Source: a virus (lineage: Duplodnaviria; Heunggongvirae; Uroviricota; Caudoviricetes). From it: a DNA stretch of 39,184 nucleotides. The stretch's first letter is position 1. Every line of letters begins with the position of its first letter. Under the pieces are notes generated by a model. It ran no database searches, had not been told where the DNA came from, and was given only the letters and a program-made list of their open reading frames with translations. Location: IMG/VR virus record IMGVR_UViG_2693429536_000016, one strand, 5' to 3'. Made by a program: the position numbers and the translations under genes. This document shows positions 1 to 8,231 of the stretch, in pieces.

Positions 1-90
1 TTGCCTCCCCCCCGTTGATGGGTAAAATAGCCGCAATTTTTCGTTTTCAACAAGCGCGGCGCGATGCCGCTTACTCAAGAAGAAAGAATT

Positions 91-165
91 ATGACGTTGT
101 CTCCTTATTTGCAAGAGGTGGCGAAGCGCCGCACTTTTGCCATTATTTCTCACCCCAATAATTAA
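91..165 (+). pseudogene. prfC: 5' remnant of peptide chain release factor 3 gene (prfC), truncated after ~22 native codons at the prophage junction
   Basis: ATG at 91 encodes [22 protein letters not shown] then NN-stop; the first 22 residues match the RF3 N-terminus as I recall it (native continues DAGKTT P-loop). Divergence at ~nt 154-160 marks the likely att core/phage boundary. Confidence 0.5.
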
Positions 166-319
166 GCCTAAATTAAAGCTCTTTTACTTTTTCAAAGTCC
201 TTTCAGTTAATTGATGTTTGGTTTTATAAGTCATTTAAATACAGTTAGTTATGTGGCTTCTTTAATTGAAAATTCTTTCATGTAACTTTAAATCGATCAG
301 GTTGCTTTCATCAAAAATC

Positions 320-376
320 TGTACATATACTTGTACATAATGTACAAAGCAGCAGAGGTGTTTTGCGATTTGTACA
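320..376. promoter_or_regulatory. Cluster of four TGTACA hexamers including 17-bp palindrome TTGTACATAATGTACAA (331-347) immediately upstream of int
   Basis: TGTACA at 320-325, 332-337, 341-346, 371-376; int RBS AAGGTGAG and ATG follow at 375-388. Likely int promoter/operator or recombinase/accessory-factor binding sites. Confidence 0.35.
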
Positions 377-385
377 AGGTGAGTA

Positions 386-1624
386 ATGGCGCTGTCTGAT
401 GCGTGGTTGCGTTCAGTCGTTGGAAAGGAACGTGATAAGGTTTTGGTTAAATCCGATCGTGATGGTCTGTCTGTCAGAGTATCACCGAAAGGTCGCGTAG
501 TGTTCCAATATCGTTATCAATGGGCAGGGAAAGGTGAGCGCCTTGATATCGGAACTTACCCGGCAACTGGATTAAAAGAGGCCAGAGAAGAAGTTATCCG
601 TCTCCGTGGTGAACTCGAGTCAAACCGCAATCCACGATTAGTCAAGCAGGCTGAAAAACGAAAAGCTACTGAAGCCATGACGGTAGAGTCTGTGATCCGT
701 GCCTGGTATGAAGCATATTGTGTAAAAAATAAAAAAGGTTCTGAACAGATACTCCGCTCGTTTGAGCTGCACCTGTTCTCTAAAATCGGGAATATCCCTC
801 ACGATGCAGCTACATTGCATGATTGGTTAGAAGTCCTAGAGCCTCTTAGCACCAAGACTCCAGCAATAGTAGACCGATTGCTAATTAACGCAAAGCAGGC
901 TCATGTCTGGGCGTATAAGAGAAAGCTCATTGAAACTCGCCCACTGTCGGATATCACGGGTAAAGATATGGATATCCGTAAAGGTCAGAAAAAACGGTTT
1001 CTGACACATGATGAAATTAACATCCTTTATGCTGCGATCGATGGTTCTCGAATGGTTCCTAAATACCGAGCCTTCATTAAACTATTGCTGCATTTTGGTT
1101 GCCGTAGTTCAGAGCTAATTACTGCTAGGGTGGATGATTTTGATTTCATAAATAAGGTATGGACTGTACCACCAGAACGACATAAGATTGGGGACATAAC
1201 AGGCGAACCGCTAAAGCGGCCCATTATTGAACCGGTTGAAGAGCTTATAAAATACGTTATCTCTATGAACAACGGTTCCGATATGCTTTTTACTAAGGAA
1301 GGAAGCAGGGAGCCAGTTGGTCGGACATCATTGCAGTCGCTGCCTTACAATTTAATGCAGTTCGCATGGCGACGTTTGGGGTATCAATTTCCTCATTGGT
1401 CTCTTCATGATTTGAGACGAACAGCACGAACAAACTTTTCTGATCTTACTGCTCCTCATATTGCTGAAATAATGCTCGGTCATAAACTGCCAGGGGTATG
1501 GCAAGTTTATGATAAGAGCGATTATCTAGAAGAACAGCGTAAAGCCTATCAGGCATGGTGGGATAGGGTTGATTCGATTCTTACTTACACTAATTTAGGT
1601 TCCAACAGACAGCCTATTGAATAA
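386..1624 (+). CDS. int: Phage integrase, tyrosine recombinase family
   Basis: 412-aa ORF with RBS AAGGTGAG; C-terminal catalytic region has HDLRRT...GH...Y arrangement typical of tyrosine recombinases; positioned at prophage edge next to att-like junction. Confidence 0.9.
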   Translation: MALSDAWLRSVVGKERDKVLVKSDRDGLSVRVSPKGRVVFQYRYQWAGKGERLDIGTYPATGLKEAREEVIRLRGELESNRNPRLVKQAEKRKATEAMTVESVIRAWYEAYCVKNKKGSEQILRSFELHLFSKIGNIPHDAATLHDWLEVLEPLSTKTPAIVDRLLINAKQAHVWAYKRKLIETRPLSDITGKDMDIRKGQKKRFLTHDEINILYAAIDGSRMVPKYRAFIKLLLHFGCRSSELITARVDDFDFINKVWTVPPERHKIGDITGEPLKRPIIEPVEELIKYVISMNNGSDMLFTKEGSREPVGRTSLQSLPYNLMQFAWRRLGYQFPHWSLHDLRRTARTNFSDLTAPHIAEIMLGHKLPGVWQVYDKSDYLEEQRKAYQAWWDRVDSILTYTNLGSNRQPIE

Positions 1625-1738
1625 TGAATAGACATACAGAGTAAGAAAATAGTAATGATTCTTGGATTATAATTAACTGGTTGCTGATATTTCGATTTGC
1701 CGATTTATGAAGAGACGGTCATTATACTTATAAAAACA

Positions 1739-1770
1739 CCACTCCTTATCCTTACAGAAATAAGGAGTGG
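1739..1770. terminator. Perfect 10-bp inverted repeat hairpin between convergent int and deaminase genes (probable bidirectional terminator)
   Basis: CCACTCCTTA(1739-1748) ... TAAGGAGTGG(1761-1770), 12-nt loop; A/T-rich flanks give a U-run on the - strand after the stem. Confidence 0.45.
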
Positions 1771-1776
1771 AAACAG

Positions 1777-3372
1777 TTATGGCTGAGACTCTGGTTTAGC
1801 AATCTCGTTTATAAATTTCTTAGCTACAACAGTCTCATACTTTCTATAATCATCAAGATATTGAACATCTATATGATTTTTGTAGCGAGCATTAAATTTA
1901 TTTGCATCCCCTGTTTTATCATCTTTACGTTCATCCGTTGGTCTGAAAAATTTATGGTAGCGGCGGGGTGATACCCCCTCAAAATCACAAAATATTACTT
2001 TGGAAGATTCTTCGTTCTTTGTTATTGCATCATTATGCAGATCAAGAGCAAGGCTTTTATCAAATGGCTCTATATATACTACTTTTTTTATTCCAGATGC
2101 GACAATATGCCTTGCACAGTTGTGGCAGGGATAGGTTGTCGTAAAAAGAATTTTATCTTTAGTATCGCCGTTTTGTTTTCTAGCCATTGATGTAATGACG
2201 TCCATTTCAGCATGAATTGATCTGGAGTACTCCATTACACTTGATATTTTGCTGTCTTTGTAAATGCCTTCTGCAATATTATCTAATTTGTTTAGAAGTC
2301 GTGTTATATTAATATCGGCAACAGTTTGTCCTGCGGAAATACCTAATACACTTCTTACTTCGGTTGATAATATGCTTTTTATACGGTCTTTAATTTTTTG
2401 CTTGTTTGCATCATTATAACACTTACCACTTTTGTGAACGCATCGATGATCGTTATCAAAATCATCACTGCTATACAACCCGCCACCAGCTTTAGGTACG
2501 TCGTTCTTACCCACGGCAAGCAAATTCCCTTCATCATCAAACAGTGCAGCCCCTACTTGACGTGATAAACAAGCTGATTGTAATGATGTTGAAAAGGCAG
2601 CATACATACCTTTCTCGTTAAAAGTTGGTGTTAAACCATTTTTGCCATGAATAAGACCGAAAAACCGATCAATCTTCTTCTTTAATTCACTTTTTTGGCT
2701 GAAGTTATTTTTAATAAAAAAATCTGAATCAAGAATGGTTTCCCCGGTTCTTTGTCCATACGGATCAGAGGATTTATTATCAATATTAATAATTAAATGA
2801 AGGTCGTCCTTTGTCGATTCGTCAGCAATGAGATTCGTAATTCGGTAATCTAAATCGCGCAAAACTCCTAACAAATAGAAATTATGCTGATATATAACTC
2901 TGAATAACTCTATTTCTTCCGGCCTTTTGAATTGATCAATGATGAAGACAGTACCTTTATATTCATCATTATTATAATCAATATTCTTTTTCGCTGCTGC
3001 GATTGCTGCAATAGCAGCTTCTGCAAGCAACTCATTTTTTTCGTAATGTTTACGAAGTTTATTGGCAATATCCTGGAGTTTTAAATGTCTATTAACTTGT
3101 GTGCTTTCGGATACCTTCAGTGCTGCTGGCTCAAAATATAATGGGTCTTCCATAAGCGCACTTATGCGGATGTGTACAACATTATACCCCCATTCTTTGG
3201 ATATCTCTTCGATAATTTTGTTTATCGTTTTCATGCCACATCCAACATATCCACATAATCCAAGATAAATATCTTTTGATTGTCGTGAATTCACAATCTC
3301 AAGTGATGATGCCGATGTTGAGCCTTTTTTTTCATTCAGCTTTTGTGGAGTTTTTTTTGCTGCTTCAGCCAT
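1777..3372 (-). CDS. Two-domain protein: N-terminal P-loop-like nucleotide kinase-like domain fused to C-terminal cytidine/dCMP deaminase zinc-binding domain (AvcD / anti-phage dCTP-deaminase-like candidate)
   Basis: 531 aa; glycine-rich motif LGLCGYVGCGMKT near N-terminus; C-terminal HAEMDVI ... YPCHNCARHIVASGIKKVVYIEPF (HAE + PCxxC zinc-binding deaminase signature). Low-GC gene inserted between int and xis. Confidence 0.6.
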   Translation of the reverse strand: MAEAAKKTPQKLNEKKGSTSASSLEIVNSRQSKDIYLGLCGYVGCGMKTINKIIEEISKEWGYNVVHIRISALMEDPLYFEPAALKVSESTQVNRHLKLQDIANKLRKHYEKNELLAEAAIAAIAAAKKNIDYNNDEYKGTVFIIDQFKRPEEIELFRVIYQHNFYLLGVLRDLDYRITNLIADESTKDDLHLIINIDNKSSDPYGQRTGETILDSDFFIKNNFSQKSELKKKIDRFFGLIHGKNGLTPTFNEKGMYAAFSTSLQSACLSRQVGAALFDDEGNLLAVGKNDVPKAGGGLYSSDDFDNDHRCVHKSGKCYNDANKQKIKDRIKSILSTEVRSVLGISAGQTVADINITRLLNKLDNIAEGIYKDSKISSVMEYSRSIHAEMDVITSMARKQNGDTKDKILFTTTYPCHNCARHIVASGIKKVVYIEPFDKSLALDLHNDAITKNEESSKVIFCDFEGVSPRRYHKFFRPTDERKDDKTGDANKFNARYKNHIDVQYLDDYRKYETVVAKKFINEIAKPESQP

Positions 3373-3382
3373 TGCTAATTAC

Positions 3383-3568
3383 CTAGTCGAAAACTATATC
3401 AGTATTTATTATTTCAAAAAATGCATCAAGAATTTCTTTATTTTTCTTTTTACTTTCAAATGAAATGACATTATCTTGATTAAATGTTGTTAATTCAATG
3501 CAGATAGAATCAACCTGATCATTGGCGGCGATGCTCGATTCTATTTCATTAAATGCTATTACATTCAT
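3383..3568 (-). CDS. Small acidic hypothetical protein encoded immediately upstream of (and co-oriented with) the deaminase gene
   Basis: 61-aa ORF ending 10 nt before the deaminase start codon; D/E-rich, protein-like composition; weak RBS. Could instead be non-coding leader/sRNA region. Confidence 0.3.
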   Translation of the reverse strand: MNVIAFNEIESSIAANDQVDSICIELTTFNQDNVISFESKKKNKEILDAFFEIINTDIVFD

Positions 3569-3665
3569 TTATCTTATCCAAACATAATAAAAAACCATAT
3601 GGCCTTTAGTGTACAACAAAACCATACTCTTTCCCCTCATTTTAGAGGGGGAAGTGTGGTCCACA

Positions 3666-3932
3666 TCATGTTTTTTCCCACCCATGAAAATGTTCACCTA
3701 GGCTGGTGAGGCATTTTATGTACATCAACTCTTTGAGTTGAATCATTATTTTAGTATTTTTTCTATCATTGTGTAAATGTCTTCGTTTCAATACATCATG
3801 CTTGGGGAGCGGTCCCCGTTTCCTGATAATTAATGCTTGTGGATAGCAACGTCCGTGCCTATATCGCTCAGACAGACGCTTACCGTGCCATAGACGTGTC
3901 TGTTCACATACGTCATTCAATAACTCCTGCAA
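3666..3932 (-). CDS. Hypothetical small basic ORF downstream of xis (doubtful)
   Basis: 88-aa ORF, very R/K/H-rich, overlaps xis 3' end; composition is not convincingly protein-like. Confidence 0.2.
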   Translation of the reverse strand: MQELLNDVCEQTRLWHGKRLSERYRHGRCYPQALIIRKRGPLPKHDVLKRRHLHNDRKNTKIMIQLKELMYIKCLTSLGEHFHGWEKT

Positions 3933-4107
3933 ACCTGTAAATCTTGCGTGACGCCCATTTATTTGGGCATGATTTAATATCAGGATCTGGAAAATCAGGC
4001 CTGTACTTCTGGCCAGTTCTCCGGTTTACGCTGTTCCAGCGAAGAACTGTCGATACTGAAACGCCACAGAATTCGGCAACTTGTTTTGTTGTCATTAAGT
4101 TGTTCAT
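3913..4107 (-). CDS. xis: Excisionase / AlpA-like helix-turn-helix DNA-binding protein
   Basis: Start MNNLMTTKQVAEFCGVSVSTVLRW (HTH) at 4107 in TAATG overlap with upstream gene stop; small size and position near int. Confidence 0.6.
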   Translation of the reverse strand: MNNLMTTKQVAEFCGVSVSTVLRWNSVNRRTGQKYRPDFPDPDIKSCPNKWASRKIYRFAGVIE

Positions 4108-4502
4108 TAGTTCACCTTCTGCGGTTGTGCAGTTGAAAGACTCATTCCAGCGCGTTGCTGCCAGACAACCCAGCCGAGAGCCATATCCCATGCCATGTAC
4201 TCGTTATCGCCGTTTTTGGCTCTCCGACGATCTACTGAGTCACCGAAACGCTTTTCCATGAATAATTCATAAGATATTCGTTCATTTGTGATGGTCATTA
4301 CGGGAGGAGCTAGGTAGAGAGGCGTTCCACCATTTTTGTTGGTAAGTGCAACTACACTTTTACTCAGCATCCATGCCACCGGCTTTTTATCAAGAGAAGC
4401 CAAAGCTATTTGTGCTAGTTCCATTTGCTCGCCACGGGTAAGTCTGTTTTCAAGCGGATTTTTAATGAATAATTCGATACGTTCTTTGGTAATAGAATTC
4501 AT
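4107..4502 (-). CDS. Hypothetical phage early protein
   Basis: 131-aa ORF, translationally coupled (TAGcATG) to upstream gene in the leftward operon. Confidence 0.5.
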   Translation of the reverse strand: MNSITKERIELFIKNPLENRLTRGEQMELAQIALASLDKKPVAWMLSKSVVALTNKNGGTPLYLAPPVMTITNERISYELFMEKRFGDSVDRRRAKNGDNEYMAWDMALGWVVWQQRAGMSLSTAQPQKVN

Positions 4503-4503
4503 G

Positions 4504-4899
4504 CTATTTCACCTTGATCTCAACATTTCGCAGCCGTAGCTCCACTGGCAGGTCTGACTTTCCGGTTAAAGCTAATGCGAGATTTTCTAGAGTAATGAGA
4601 GCTGTTATTGTTTTCCCCATACAGGCGTTATCACCAACACGCTCAAGATGCGGAGGGTCGAATACAACCACCGAAAAAGATGCGTCTGCAAATGGTAATG
4701 CACGAGAATCAGCTATCAGGTCAGGACTGATAATCAGGCGTTGCCCATCGCACAATGTATGCTCTTCCTTTCTGATATCGCTGAATATCGCCCGTTCGTC
4801 ATTTGTATCGAACCAGAACATGCGACTGCCACAGCACATGTCGAGGATTGCTGCATGTCCAGTCACTGGTTGCCCCCTTTGCGAAGCCGTTCCGCCCAT
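4504..4899 (-). CDS. Hypothetical protein with methyltransferase-like motifs (DMCCGS and FDPPH); possible small or fragmentary DNA methyltransferase
   Basis: 131-aa ORF; SAM-binding-like D-x-C-C-G-S and DPPH catalytic-like motif ~60 aa apart; too short for a complete MTase. Confidence 0.4.
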   Translation of the reverse strand: MGGTASQRGQPVTGHAAILDMCCGSRMFWFDTNDERAIFSDIRKEEHTLCDGQRLIISPDLIADSRALPFADASFSVVVFDPPHLERVGDNACMGKTITALITLENLALALTGKSDLPVELRLRNVEIKVK

Positions 4900-5213
4900 T
4901 CTTCAAGGGATTTCTCCGCATATTCACCAGACAGGCCATCAATCGGATGCGATTCATTAGCTAACTCTTCTTTCGCTGACAGAATCATGCGTGTAACGTC
5001 GAAAACTTCAGTCAAAGGCTTATTGATAAATCCGTGATTGAAAGCAGAAGCAAGACGGCTTGCGGTATAGTTAATACCCTCGTTGCGAGCCTCAGCACGT
5101 ACTTCATCGAATTTACGCACCAGATACTCAGCATTTGTTTCATTCACTTTCAGATCTCGCGGTACACATTTCCCGCGAAGAAAACCTTCCATTTCGAAAA
5201 CATTTATGCGCAT
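4863..5213 (-). CDS. Hypothetical phage early protein
   Basis: 116-aa ORF in leftward operon, overlaps neighbours by a few codons. Confidence 0.5.
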   Translation of the reverse strand: MRINVFEMEGFLRGKCVPRDLKVNETNAEYLVRKFDEVRAEARNEGINYTASRLASAFNHGFINKPLTEVFDVTRMILSAKEELANESHPIDGLSGEYAEKSLEEWAERLRKGGNQ

Positions 5214-5821
5214 TTGCGTAACTCCGATAACTCGTTAAAACGTTCCATAAACATCCCGTAGGCATGGCCTGGTGACAGTGGAATAACTTTGAACATCTCT
5301 GTTGCCGGGATGCCTTCCAGTACAGGCCAGAAAGAGCCATCATCAAGCCCGAGATCACGGCGTTCGGTTGCCAGCATGATTAGATCGGCATATTTCACAG
5401 GCGTACTCATAACCGGGGGCAACTCGTATTTCTCACGGATTACTGCGTCTATTTTTTCTTCCATCCGTTTATAGTCAGGAAGAAGGCGTTTCAGTGGTGC
5501 GGGGATGTCCTGGCAATACGCTTCTGTTGCATCATGCATTAACGCTTCAAAAGCAAATTCCTGCGGCACCAGCTGGCTGCAAAGCACCGCATGTTGGGCG
5601 ACGCTGTAGAAGTGAGAAAGATGACCGGCAAAGCGGCAGATATTTGAAAGGGAAACCGCGATATCGTTAATCACGATGTCGTTTTTATTTATCTTGTCAT
5701 AATAAAAATGCTTCCCGGAAAAAGTTTTAATAAATGACATTTTGTTCTCCACGTATATGCGCTGCACCGCGCTGAATTCGGGTAAAAGGAAGCCCTCGCT
5801 ATCAGGCGATTGTTGAGTCAA
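5204..5821 (-). CDS. HD-domain phosphohydrolase (5'-deoxynucleotidase-like, YfdR-like)
   Basis: Motifs ...SVAQHAV... and ...LMHDATE... (H...HD) typical of the HD superfamily; true start may be internal Met (MSFIKTF, ~5740). Confidence 0.6.
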   Translation of the reverse strand: MTQQSPDSEGFLLPEFSAVQRIYVENKMSFIKTFSGKHFYYDKINKNDIVINDIAVSLSNICRFAGHLSHFYSVAQHAVLCSQLVPQEFAFEALMHDATEAYCQDIPAPLKRLLPDYKRMEEKIDAVIREKYELPPVMSTPVKYADLIMLATERRDLGLDDGSFWPVLEGIPATEMFKVIPLSPGHAYGMFMERFNELSELRKCA

Positions 5822-5867
5822 TTACGTTTCCATAAATGCCCCCGCAGGGGCATTTGCAGCAATGAAA

Positions 5868-6692
5868 TCAGGCGGTGAAAGTACCAATAAAGGTTTCTAC
5901 TTTGCTGTCTTTGAATTTCTCAACAAGCAGATCACGAAATTCGTTAGCCATTTCTTCCTGGACTGCTTCCAACTGAATAATGCGCAGAACCAGTACAGGA
6001 CGATCGCCAGTGATAATGCTGAGGCGTAATTTAAACGGACGTTCTTTCAGACTTTCAAACGGAACGCATTTAAATTCAAATGCCACTGGCATAATATCTT
6101 TGGTCTTCGCTTCGACAGACTCCATCAGGGAGCGTTTTCCGCTGAAGTCATTATCTTCAAAATCAGCGGTCTGGTTTGCTTCAATCGTGATTTTACGGAC
6201 AGCCGCAGCCGCTTTTGTTGCCTGAATAGCGTCACCATTAGCATCAAAGCCTACAAGGTAGTCGGCCCAGTCTTCAATCCATTCTGCCAGTGACTTCTGG
6301 GAGTTACGCTCGCCGTTAACAGACAACAGAGCAGAGAACGGTGCTGTCTTTTTCAGTTTGAGAATGGCGGTGTTATCTGCGTGACCTGGTTCATCAATAG
6401 TACCCAGGTTAAGCACACTGACGGCACGCATATTATCAGCATCGATAAAGCAGCGGGTGCCTTCATCTGCAAGATCTTTAGAATAACGGGTAAAGTCATC
6501 GATGCTGGCAGTGGAAAGCGCACCACGGAAACGGAAGCGATTTAAATTAAATTTTTCCAGATCATGAATGCGGAAATTCTCAGGCAATGCCACAGCATCG
6601 GCACCAATCTTACTGATAATTTCATTAACACCCTGAGCAGAAATAAGGGCATGGATTTGATTAATTGCGGTTGCGTCTAAGTTCTGAGACAT
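5868..6692 (-). CDS. Conserved prophage protein, YfdQ/DUF2303-like
   Basis: 274-aa ORF adjacent to HD-domain gene, an arrangement I recall from CPS-53-type prophage early regions; function unknown. Confidence 0.5.
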
Positions 6693-6757
6693 AATAAGTC
6701 CTCACTATATAAAGATATTCAGTGATGAGATAAATAATCAGTTAATTAAGAACGATA

Positions 6758-7120
6758 TTAATGACCTGCTGCGCGGAGTTTTCCGTCAGGTTCACCGGCA
6801 AGAGTCAGTAATTGTCCCTGGTCTTCCTGCAGAATAGTCAGGCGACCACCGCGATTGACATACATCGGCGTTTCGGTGGTGTCTTCTTCAGAAATTTTCC
6901 CGCGGTTAGTCGGGCGAACATATGAGAGTTTGTGTTTGATTTTCACACGGTTCTCATCAAATGGTTCGATTTCCAGGTTGAGTGAGACCTTACCTTTGGT
7001 CTTCGTGTTCATCACACCTGAAGCGACTTCACTGAGAACTGCGCCGATTTTGGTTTCAAATACGCCGCCGTCCAACTCCCCGATAAATGCCTGCACATCA
7101 GTACTGCGTTCGCTAGCCAT
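6758..7120 (-). CDS. First gene of leftward early operon, hypothetical protein
   Basis: Start ATG at 7120 (MASERSTD...) preceded by GAGGAG RBS; the ORF-track N-terminal extension (7121-7306) overlaps a structured leader and is unlikely to be coding. Confidence 0.5.
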   Translation of the reverse strand: MASERSTDVQAFIGELDGGVFETKIGAVLSEVASGVMNTKTKGKVSLNLEIEPFDENRVKIKHKLSYVRPTNRGKISEEDTTETPMYVNRGGRLTILQEDQGQLLTLAGEPDGKLRAAGH

Positions 7121-7168
7121 TTTGCTGCTCCTCATCATATCGACCCTGCAAGGTCGGTTGGTTTCTCC

Positions 7169-7303
7169 ACAAAACAGAGAAGAACACCTGCGGTGGCAGC
7201 CGCCCGGATGGATTGGGTTATGAGCCCGTCGTCCGGTGATGCTCTTCTCTGTTTTGTAAAAAGAGCGGTACCAGCCGGAAGCAAGTGTACAAACTGGTAC
7301 CGC
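7169..7303 (-). promoter_or_regulatory. Structured leader of the leftward early transcript: 18-bp inverted repeat (7169-7186 / 7240-7257) and 10-bp perfect inverted repeat GCGGTACCAG/CTGGTACCGC (7265-7274 / 7294-7303)
   Basis: Long stems read directly from the sequence between the putative pL/OL (7463-7515) and the first leftward gene; candidate nut/put-like antitermination or terminator elements. Confidence 0.3.
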
Positions 7304-7462
7304 CAAAGCAGTGGCTGTTGTGGTGACCGGTGCTGATCTCCGGCTTGCGGTTATTTCAGACTCTCACGGGCGTTTAATTGCCCCGCCGAACAGCTCTTTT
7401 CCGCAATAGCTGCAATGTCTTTCGCGCATCAGCCTGCGCATTCACCACAACTCTAAAAACAA

Positions 7463-7515
7463 ATGTAGGATATCCAACATGTAAGTGTCAAGAGTTTATG
7501 TTGGTTATCCTACAT
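7463..7515 (-). promoter_or_regulatory. OL-type operator pair with leftward promoter (pL candidate)
   Basis: Two 18-bp palindromic sites ATGTAGGATATCCAACAT (7463-7480) and ATGTTGGTTATCCTACAT (7498-7515); on the - strand TTGACA (7491-7486) -17 nt- CTACAT resembles -35/-10. Confidence 0.5.
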
Positions 7516-7531
7516 AAAAAGATAGGCTCAT

Positions 7532-7557
7532 AAAAAAACCGGGGATACCCCGGTTTT
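7532..7557 (-). terminator. Rho-independent terminator downstream of cI
   Basis: A7 - ACCGGGG ata CCCCGGT - TTTT: GC stem with U-run on the - strand after the cI stop. Confidence 0.5.
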
Positions 7558-7577
7558 GCGATAGTGAGGAAGATGTG

Positions 7578-8231
7578 TCAAAAATCCATTATTACTTGTT
7601 TGACAAGACCAACTATTCTGCAGTTCTCACCGCATTCAATAGTTTTATAGTTAGGATTTAGTGGGACGAGATACCTGTTCGGCCAGTCCTCAACAAATTT
7701 TTTGAGTGTCGCTTCTTGCCCACCATTGATATGGGCAACAACGATTTTTCCGTTAATACACTCTGTATCAATAATATCTGGCTCTACGATAACGATAGAA
7801 CCTTCTGGTATCGATGGTGAGCCGAGGGGATTGGTCATTGAATCACCACGGACCCGTAGTGCAAATGCCATTTCTGATACAAGGGCGGTAGTATAAACCC
7901 ACTCTTCAGCATCTTCTTTCCTGACACCAGGCTCCGTCATTGTCCATGAACCCGCCTGAACCCACGAGATGAGGGGGACTTTTTTAACTGCGAATATTTC
8001 AGGTTTTAGATTTATCTTTGGTTCAGGCGAGCCTTTTCCGCTAACAAGCCACAGAGGATCGCATTTAAGTGCGTTGGCTAGGGCTTGAAGGTTGGCTCCA
8101 TTTGGTTGGTAGTCGTCCTTTTCCCATCCAGTAACCGTGACACGGTTCACACCAGTCAAATCAGCCAGTGCTTGTTGTGTCAGGTTCAGTTCTTTTCGCC
8201 TTTGGCGAATACGATCACTCATGTTCATCAT
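7578..8231 (-). CDS. cI: CI-type prophage repressor (N-terminal XRE HTH + C-terminal LexA/S24-like autopeptidase domain)
   Basis: HTH ...LNLTQQALADLTGVNRVTVTGWE...; C-terminal ...VRGDSMTNP... and ...KIVVAHINGGQEATLKKF... consistent with S24 Ser/Lys dyad fold; divergent from cro and flanked by operators. Start is one of the Met codons at 8231/8228/8222. Confidence 0.85.
   Translation of the reverse strand: MMNMSDRIRQRRKELNLTQQALADLTGVNRVTVTGWEKDDYQPNGANLQALANALKCDPLWLVSGKGSPEPKINLKPEIFAVKKVPLISWVQAGSWTMTEPGVRKEDAEEWVYTTALVSEMAFALRVRGDSMTNPLGSPSIPEGSIVIVEPDIIDTECINGKIVVAHINGGQEATLKKFVEDWPNRYLVPLNPNYKTIECGENCRIVGLVKQVIMDF

Follow-up and report, generated by a model that had tools for sequence, protein, structure and literature searches.

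An avcI-like small open reading frame with a coding signature 5′ of avcD in an Escherichia coli prophage

The 39,184-nucleotide (nt) viral record IMGVR_UViG_2693429536_000016 (hereafter the window, meaning this stretch at its full length) carries a member of AvcID, a widespread nucleotide-depletion defence and the textbook case of an enzyme restrained by a labile RNA. Comparative analysis supports reading the minus strand from about 3705 to 3373 as the avcI part of an AvcID module that belongs to an Escherichia coli prophage, directly 5′ of the effector gene avcD (1777-3372, −). Within this part, an open reading frame (ORF) of 61 codons at 3383-3568 (−) belongs to a family of small ORFs that, as judged from codon-level comparison, is under purifying selection on its amino acids, the Vibrio type examples included. 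We assign a probability of about 0.55 to a dual-function avcI, of which the RNA would be the cognate-specific antitoxin and the peptide a second ligand of AvcD or of the RNA–AvcD complex. Although the AvcID system is already known, this member of it and a coding signal across the avcI family appear to be new, and the latter would challenge the type III (RNA-only) label of the system. Seen across about 40 loci, the ORF has the profile of a conserved, selected small protein, as opposed to the "non-coding" label that it carries in reviews up to 2025.

The initial annotation, made from the letters of the window alone, had pointed to an AT-rich segment of about 290 nt before the deaminase gene as the equivalent of the AvcI position and had noted a possible acidic ORF of 61 amino acids in it. 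Both observations hold: the locus lies on the same strand directly 5′ of an AvcD-type deaminase, its ORF falls in the family of V. cholerae avcI/difV, and the G+C content is 30.4% over 3373-3665, with 3301-3600 (29%) representing the 300-nt minimum of the first 8 kb. The ORF runs from an ATG at 3568 to a TAG at 3385-3383 (186 nt) and encodes a 6.9-kDa product with an isoelectric point of 4.06 and a net charge of −8 (MNVIAF...DNVISF...KEILDAFFEIINTDIVFD); its frame is open in all relatives, and a complete ORF of this length arises in only 1.2% of composition-matched shuffles of the interval. A spacer of 10 nt, GTAATTAGCA (3373-3382, −), separates its stop codon from the avcD ATG and is nearly invariant among Escherichia, Budvicia, Morganella, Proteus and metagenome relatives, the gap ranging from 8 to 10 nt across the window's clade. 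The AGG that overlaps the ORF stop is the sole Shine-Dalgarno-like element for avcD, and a consensus scan finds no terminator-like site between the two genes; since the spacer leaves no space for a terminator and the stop codon is so close to avcD, co-transcription and probable translational coupling are to be expected.

Annotation of this gene is scattered. The exact window peptide is present on at least 1000 database contigs as a "hypothetical protein", and the NCBI annotation pipeline (PGAP) treats the locus inconsistently, calling an N7D allele a hypothetical protein (WP_040091656.1) and skipping the 61-amino-acid ORF in other genomes. The window's clade corresponds to phrog_9966, which matches the ORF at 1.9e-43 and has no function assigned there, whereas Pfam, NCBIfam and PDB contain no match to the ORF family, in which no type II-style DNA-binding or antitoxin domain is recognised. 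A natural allele of the window ORF with a frameshifted C-terminus encodes 52 residues (proteins P0042 and P0028 are truncated or frameshifted variants).

The family was delineated by comparing about 130 AvcD loci, from three annotated E. coli contexts (prophage, 4.6-kb plasmid, and integrative and conjugative element (ICE)), nine species genomes, 80 metagenome contigs, 36 viral contigs, the V. cholerae VSP-1 island and Proteus mirabilis. Every fetched homologue that is at least ~38% identical to the window AvcD has on its 5′ side an ORF in the same orientation, 45-74 codons long once over-long starts are trimmed, that ends 8-106 nt before the AvcD start (12-106 nt outside the window's clade), and the module occupies prophages, the 4.6-kb plasmid, the ICE and the VSP-1 island of Gammaproteobacteria. 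The products share an N-terminal segment, M-(I/V)-(I/V)-x-(F/L/Y)-(K/R), a central segment, (S/N)-(N/K)-V-(V/I)-x-(F/L), and a C-terminal helix followed by the stop, (K/R)-K-A-(I/L)-x-x-I-(L/I)-x-R-A-x-x-L-x-W; in the window's clade these read MNVI(A/T)F, DNVISF and KE(I/V)LDAF(F/I)EI(I/M)NTDI(I/V)FD-stop. Across the family, conservation peaks in the final ~20 codons before the stop. When the 520 nt preceding AvcD at 114 loci are translated in six frames and scanned with the family profile, it matches at 60 loci (E < 1e-3), all 60 times on the AvcD strand and never on the opposite one.

Distant AvcD homologues, mostly from soil, lack the family, and about 50 homologues below 38% identity show no detectable partner ORF. 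Three distant metagenome loci (L042, L045 and L069) have an upstream ORF that ends ...(D/S)ALKR(I/L/V)LDFA..., some 20-110 nt before AvcD, and thereby resembles the family helix without its terminal Trp. A search of 1.84 billion cluster representatives returns nine matches at E ≤ 1e-3, a small number because such short proteins score poorly, and a scan of viral contigs for more divergent members of the window's clade yields near-identical copies only.

The characterised avcI loci belong to this family. Published work describes an avcI transcript of about 280 nt with a minimal unit of about 171 nt (PMC10511110). The V. cholerae avcI/difV ORF (L130, 1253-1423; MVIDYNEKKSKNDVKHLIDKDQSNKTKVIQFTEVKKKSASVQATRALLEQAKQLGW), which was left outside the profile and is matched by it at 1.4e-8, measures 171 nt including its stop, as does the ORF of the Vibrio harveyi group (V. 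parahaemolyticus type) when read from its second Met (56 codons plus stop); since both are clear family members of this size, the published AvcI corresponds to this ORF. The DNA of the window locus cannot be aligned with that of characterised avcI, and the likeness lies at the level of protein profiles: with a profile built from only the W-ending clade, the window ORF obtains 11.9 bits (p = 1.4e-5), a score attained by one of 5000 shuffles, and the reversed sequence 1.8 bits. By this measure the link between the clades is weak but consistent, and a common position, strand and size lend it support. Within the window's clade, a P. mirabilis locus has an ORF 79% identical to that of the window, with the 10-nt spacing too, and may be that of the strain tested in the literature.

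Evidence for selection on the amino acids comes from a codon alignment of 32 non-redundant family members. Nucleotide identity at codon positions 1, 2 and 3 is 0.37, 0.49 and 0.33 (information 0.41, 0.69 and 0.31 bits), a contrast at position 2 that protein-guided alignment inflates for distant pairs. Two members with the same residue agree in its codon 38.0% of the time, where codon usage predicts 38.1%, so that synonymous sites appear saturated while the residues are kept. Conserved Arg columns mix both codon families (AGA 6, CGA 4, CGT 2, CGC 2); conserved Leu columns comprise CTA 5, TTA 4, CTC 4, TTG 3 and CTG 2; conserved Ser columns TCA 4, AGT 3 and AGC 2; and two conserved Ala columns make use of all four codons. 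The proportion of synonymous differences (pS) exceeds that of non-synonymous ones (pN) in all pairs tested, with a ratio of non-synonymous to synonymous rates (dN/dS, ω) of about 0.15-0.4 in close pairs: ω is 0.18-0.36 between the window and its Budvicia, Morganella, Salmonella-like and L018 relatives, and 0.15 between V. cholerae and a V. parahaemolyticus-like locus, whose differences are distributed 18/6/29 over the three codon positions. In one metagenome pair, 83% of synonymous sites have changed at 74% amino-acid identity, and eight independent pairs, pooled, give pS 0.686 and pN 0.294 (Fisher p = 8e-32). Close pairs with few or no gaps, codon-family switches and strand-specific profile matches are largely unaffected by the alignment effect on position 2.

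A Shine-Dalgarno-like core is found 5-17 nt before the start at 30 of 39 loci, compared with 5.5 expected from random positions. Together, the selection at the amino-acid level and the usual presence of a ribosome-binding site (RBS) suggest that the ORF is translated. The non-synonymous rate of the peptide is about twice that of AvcD; fast non-synonymous evolution is usual for small partner proteins. On these comparisons "non-coding" fails as a description of the avcI locus, and RNA-mediated inhibition remains compatible with them. The earlier view that RNA and protein could not be told apart from sequence thus needs to be divided, as comparison of relatives does reveal amino-acid selection, together with a covarying stem described below, while the identity of the inhibiting product is not settled by sequence.

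What is known of AvcI function comes from homologous loci, and agrees with the statement in the initial annotation that AvcI is a small RNA (sRNA) encoded 5′ of the deaminase gene on the same strand. The inhibitor of V. cholerae DcdV/AvcD maps to a "174-nt ORF" directly 5′ of the effector gene in the same orientation, and constructs in which its start is changed to a stop (ATG→TAA) or its RBS is missing still block AvcD-induced filamentation (bioRxiv 10.1101/2021.03.31.437871), from which it follows that the peptide is dispensable for neutralisation under over-expression. V. cholerae avcI loses its activity when its first 18 nt or its last 4 nt are removed (bioRxiv 10.1101/2021.03.31.437871); these truncations take away either the six conserved N-terminal codons or the stop with the last base of the terminal Trp codon, fit an RNA and a peptide alike and hence do not discriminate between them. 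The authors interpreted the inhibitor as an sRNA, found avcI and avcD to be co-transcribed with avcI RNA in 20-60-fold excess, and reported that upstream ORF regions of V. cholerae, V. parahaemolyticus, P. mirabilis and enterotoxigenic E. coli (ETEC) H10407, when supplied in trans on a second plasmid, neutralise the AvcD of their own locus, cross-inhibition being limited to the two Vibrio AvcIs (bioRxiv 10.1101/2021.03.31.437871). Moreover, avcI sRNA forms a complex with AvcD and inhibits it in vitro, decays after rifampicin or phage infection, and is not separated from avcD by a terminator (PMC10511110). The original study described the four upstream ORFs as having no amino-acid similarity, AvcI is still classed as non-coding RNA in a review from 2025, and no proposal of an AvcI peptide was found in the literature. 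The tested ETEC strain, H10407, is absent from the 49 E. coli genomes that carry the window allele and from the small-plasmid relatives.

An RNA layer is nevertheless discernible in the ORF. Its overall RNA stability is ordinary (window z = −0.4, V. cholerae z = −0.8), and RNAalifold, applied to the codon alignment, yields no consensus structure, either with all family members or with ten of the W clade. In the window's clade, a stem-loop at 3493-3554 (−; ORF nt 15-76), composed of an inner stem AUAGAAUC/GAUUCUAU and an outer stem AUUUAAUG/CAUUGAAU, appears in the minimum-free-energy and centroid folds and in RNAalifold (z = −3.2 relative to column shuffles). Its positions are paired in 89.5% of cells over nine sequences, against 81.5 ± 1.3 in shuffles, and nine pairs of the stem show changes on both sides, against 3.8 ± 1.3, a count reached by none of 500 shuffles; slid controls pair at 30-44%, a comparison in which the stem has an advantage from having been modelled on the window sequence. 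Stem pairing is preserved in the L018 lineage precisely by the synonymous choices made there, GAC, GTC and CGT. The V. cholerae and V. parahaemolyticus-like pair shares a 3′ stem with an RNAalifold z of −4.5, and synonymous divergence in the ORF is lower than in the adjacent avcD in several pairs (0.12/0.24, 0.54/0.79 and 0.49/0.80) and equal to it in others. The RNA layer thus appears to be clade-specific, which fits the published cross-inhibition between only the two Vibrio AvcIs.

Upstream of the ORF lies a structured, conserved 5′ leader (3569-3705, −), identified from alignments and folding. Over 3569-3745 it folds at −52.3 kcal/mol, against −39.1 ± 4.0 kcal/mol in shuffles (z = −3.3), and two motifs lie in it: GGA (3579-3577), which is a weak Shine-Dalgarno element, and TACACT (3613-3608), a conserved −10-like hexamer of the form TAnnnT. 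The interval of 3373-3665 first proposed for the regulator does contain elements of the locus; the conserved unit is larger, as alignment with Budvicia, Morganella, Proteus and metagenome relatives extends it from the avcD start to about 3705. The CCCCTC/GAGGGG hairpin that had been placed around 3635-3655 is also real: the inverted repeat I1 at 3626-3657 (−), CUUCCCCCUC - UAAAAU - GAGGGGAAAG, has arms of 13 nt (3626-3638 and 3645-3657) that are 85% complementary around a 6-nt loop, with a core of CTTCCCC / GGGGAAG. It is retained in seven relatives (Budvicia, Morganella, Proteus, Salmonella-like and metagenome), in which changes are mostly C→U on the 5′ arm and result in G-U pairs, which only a minus-strand (sense) RNA tolerates, with little true covariation. 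As a canonical intrinsic terminator the hairpin was rejected, having no U-tract directly after it and not being called by the consensus scan.

Adjoining the hairpin on its 5′ side is the palindrome TGTGGACCACA (3655-3665), a candidate operator that is partly conserved, with TGTGCACCACA and TGCGCACCACA in relatives. At about 665-680 of the plasmid L003, TGTTATAAAGATAACA is located between −35 and −10 hexamers; this sequence and TGTGGACCACA of the window may be operator sites for a regulator. The consensus scan also identifies a promoter-like site at 3748-3777 (−), TTTACA-18 nt-TAAAAT (10 of 12 matches), in a region where such sites do not exceed the number expected by chance; it is kept in Budvicia (TTTGCA...TAGAAT) and absent from Morganella and Proteus, so its designation as the promoter of the avcI-avcD transcript is tentative. 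A 42-codon ORF at 3569-3697 was discarded as probably spurious (relatives do not conserve this frame, and natural variants change its amino acids), and an 88-codon ORF at 3666-3932, also not retained as a gene, is without a domain match. Scanning 1-8000 against Rfam (E ≤ 10) gives chance-level matches only, far below gathering scores; a model of AvcI is apparently absent from Rfam.

How the two layers are to be read is a matter of weighing several explanations. If the 61-residue peptide alone inhibited AvcD, as in a type II-like system, the Vibrio RNA results would reflect residual translation or be specific to their clade. The amino-acid selection and Shine-Dalgarno sites would then find a direct explanation, as would the antitoxin-first operon with its coupling-compatible 10-nt gap, the lack of a family-wide RNA structure and of folding beyond shuffles, and the loss of activity in truncations that reach the six N-terminal codons or the stop and terminal Trp base. 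This account has to contend with the start-codon and RBS mutants that still inhibit over-expressed AvcD in V. cholerae, with a natural E45→stop allele next to an intact AvcD, with the covarying stem in the window's clade, and with the lack of a type II-style DNA-binding domain and of any match in Pfam, NCBIfam or PDB; we consider it unlikely. Less probable still is a purely non-coding, type III-like RNA antitoxin with an incidental, untranslated ORF. The V. cholerae and V. parahaemolyticus literature, the covarying stem, the weak Shine-Dalgarno of the window ORF and the tolerated nonsense allele all speak for it, yet it leaves unexplained why pS far exceeds pN in every pair, why synonymous sites are saturated beside conserved residues with switching between Arg, Leu and Ser codon families, why Shine-Dalgarno sites are enriched, and how, at 27% G+C, an open frame persists in lineages too diverged for their DNA to be aligned.

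An equally improbable proposal is that the segment acts only in cis, as promoter and 5′ untranslated region of avcD with an upstream ORF whose coupling sets avcD expression and with no trans-acting antitoxin in this clade; a variant of it would involve a regulatory nascent peptide, its conserved C-terminus possibly pausing ribosomes at the stop. The short gap, the overlap of the avcD Shine-Dalgarno with the ORF stop, the concentration of conservation in the last ~20 codons and the strongly structured leader would suit such a role, whereas neutralisation of cognate AvcD in trans by homologous ORF regions of four species, conservation of the N-terminal and central segments too, and the 12-106-nt gaps of other clades, which suit coupling poorly, argue otherwise. 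That the ORF is an unrelated prophage moron gene, or a chance frame in AT-rich DNA, has next to no credence: it has no annotated domain and often escapes PGAP, but it travels with AvcD in prophages, plasmids, the ICE and VSP-1, always on the same strand, and its length is rarely matched among the shuffles.

The start-codon and RBS mutants of V. cholerae, the inhibition by sRNA in vitro and the E45stop allele indicate that the peptide is not the sole antitoxin, and the reading that we favour is the dual-function avcI proposed above, with its RNA antitoxin and peptide ligand. Somewhat short of even odds, and thus more tentatively, we propose a hybrid system in general form, with a single short transcript acting as RNA and by way of its peptide, in which AvcI would be a translated gene from Vibrio to Escherichia whose 45-74-residue product is a partner of AvcD, be it a co-inhibitor, an infection sensor or a physiological antitoxin.

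Several observations weigh against a role for the peptide or against parts of the dual-function reading. Among them are the V. cholerae constructs without start codon or RBS, and the E45stop allele itself (L097, 1005-1139, in prophage IMG/VR UViG_2778261428_000003), whose 44-residue product lacks the conserved helix, has six database members and is encoded beside an AvcD that does not differ from the one in sister loci where the ORF is intact. The window ORF has a Shine-Dalgarno element of only 3 nt, and the AlphaFold2 monomer of its peptide is of low confidence (pLDDT 48), predicting a largely disordered chain apart from one helix at residues 37-55. HHalign connects the acidic window clade (...IVFD) with the mostly basic Vibrio-type clade (...LxW) at a probability of 54%. 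To these are added the inflated position-2 contrast, and, on the RNA side, a covarying stem that relies on nine sequences, with its three clearest double changes from one lineage (L018/L104), and that enjoys an advantage over its slid controls.

Under the dual-function reading, a transcript beginning upstream of about 3705 would contain the structured leader with the CCCCCUC/GAGGGG hairpin, the 61-codon ORF with its stop 10 nt from avcD, and avcD itself. The ORF would be translated, and ribosomes terminating at its TAG could reinitiate at the avcD ATG. As extrapolated from homologues, avcI RNA would bind AvcD and block it post-translationally; once an infecting phage stops host transcription, the labile avcI transcript would be lost, and freed AvcD would deaminate dCTP and dCMP, starving phage DNA synthesis. 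The peptide, apparently made up of an N-terminal strand, a central NV(V/I)xF strand and a C-terminal amphipathic helix, would have a selected role in the module, most plausibly by binding, as a second ligand, to AvcD or to its complex with the RNA.

The closest known relatives of the module are the AvcID (DcdV-DifV) systems of V. cholerae VSP-1 and V. parahaemolyticus (Severin/Hsueh et al. 2021-2022; Hsueh et al. 2023). Both have a kinase-like plus deaminase effector, reside on mobile elements and place the inhibitor locus directly 5′ on the same strand with no intergenic terminator; a locus of ~170-220 nt at this site has its counterpart in the 186-nt ORF of the window, and the small ORFs are of one family, with an N-terminal hydrophobic strand, a central (N/K)V(V/I)xF and a C-terminal amphipathic helix. 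Vibrio-type products are basic and end in ...LGW, in contrast to the acidic peptide of the window (net −8), which has ...IVFD as its terminus. Here 10 nt separate the ORF from avcD, in the Vibrio type about 77-81 nt; the window ORF follows a conserved, structured leader some 135-170 nt long, and no RNA structure is common to the two clades.

The effector family is the same as that of the "dCTP deaminase" defence scored from one gene (PADLOC dCTPase), to which the present loci add the upstream ORF as a conserved partner. In the study of Tal et al. in 2022 this defence was reportedly treated as a single gene and the upstream gene ignored. Type III toxin–antitoxin (TA) systems such as ToxIN, TenpIN and CptIN resemble the module in having a labile RNA antitoxin 5′ of the toxin that inhibits it post-translationally, a role that the RNA is given here from homologues, and in being activated by transcription shut-off. 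They differ from it in that the window has no tandem repeats (none was detected by Tandem Repeats Finder in 3300-3800) and no terminator between its genes, its toxin is a deaminase rather than an antitoxin-processing endoribonuclease, and the "RNA" is an ORF under protein-level selection.

With type II TA systems the module shares a small, fast-evolving protein encoded first, tight spacing with or coupling to the toxin gene, and a peptide that is predicted to be mostly disordered except for one helix, as in many antitoxins; it departs from them in lacking a DNA-binding domain or known antitoxin fold, in the published RNA-mediated inhibition, and in tolerating a nonsense allele. A further parallel is offered by SgrS/SgrT, RNAIII/δ-haemolysin and SR1/SR1P, in which one transcript combines an RNA activity with a small protein, possibly in one pathway, except that these dual-function RNAs base-pair with mRNAs and do not bind and inhibit an enzyme. 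A 2025 review of dual-function RNAs does not mention an antitoxin or AvcI. If the hybrid reading is true, avcI would be the first antitoxin of its kind and the first dual-function RNA to target an enzyme instead of an mRNA. A peptide acting in inhibition or sensing would also change the mechanism and classification of AvcID, open routes of phage evasion through proteases or translation shut-off in addition to transcription shut-off, and affect annotation, as the gene is often unannotated and defence finders score a single gene.

The effector of the window is, by its domain matches, of the AvcD/DcdV type. Its 531 residues (1777..3372, −) combine a P-loop kinase-like domain with a dCMP/dCTP deaminase domain, matching the PADLOC dCTPase model at 9.9e-165 and Pfam dCMP_cyt_deam_1 at 4.8e-15 (residues 252-434); the zinc motifs HAEMD and PCHNCARHI are present, and in 49 E. 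coli genomes the protein carries the RefSeq/PGAP name "anti-phage dCTP deaminase". It is 44-54% identical to its homologues from Vibrio, the plasmid and the ICE, and PDB contains no AvcD structure. AvcDs of the ~40 loci have in common an extreme N-terminus, M-(A/S)-(E/S/G)-(P/N/A)-A-(K/A)-K-K (window 3372-3350), followed by a variable Ser/Asn-rich linker.

The module sits at the integrase end of an E. coli prophage of the lambdoid/CPS-53-like type, with avcD between a gene for a tyrosine integrase (386-1624, +) and an HTH_17/excisionase-like ORF (3913-4191, −), and with yfdP/Q/R-like genes and an XRE repressor further into the prophage. Near-identical DNA is found in 49 of 5426 complete E. coli genomes, chromosomal every time. 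A YfdR-type 5′-deoxynucleotidase is encoded in the same prophage at 5204-5821 (−), a few genes from the dCTP deaminase. Among the E. coli records H48, H51-H53 and H58-H65, several strains have the insertion sequence (IS) elements IS421 and IS1A in or beside the module, and in a group of bovine isolates the queried leader is missing its first ~117 nt; these insertions and the leader loss suggest recurrent disruption of the locus.

Other settings of the module show further arrangements. In one V. cholerae copy of VSP-1 (L130, GCA_032027525.2), AvcD (1501-3066, 521 residues) is without the usual C-terminal ~30 residues and is followed by IS66-family genes (3132-4566), and the published numbering of the DifV-insensitive mutants (E123, A126, K201, K511 and Q514 of V. 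cholerae DcdV) does not map onto it. In the chromosome of E. coli C11 (L004, 1637-3449), the two genes are part of an ICE, right after traD and DUF4400, and the small ORF is preceded by a near-consensus promoter and AGGAGG. The whole 4615-bp plasmid L003 (NZ_CP148280.1) consists of a replication gene, a 60-residue family member, AvcD and little else, and about 25 non-mobilizable Klebsiella pneumoniae plasmids of 4.6-9.3 kb have similar content; by their gene complement, these small AvcD plasmids look like minimal defence plasmids.

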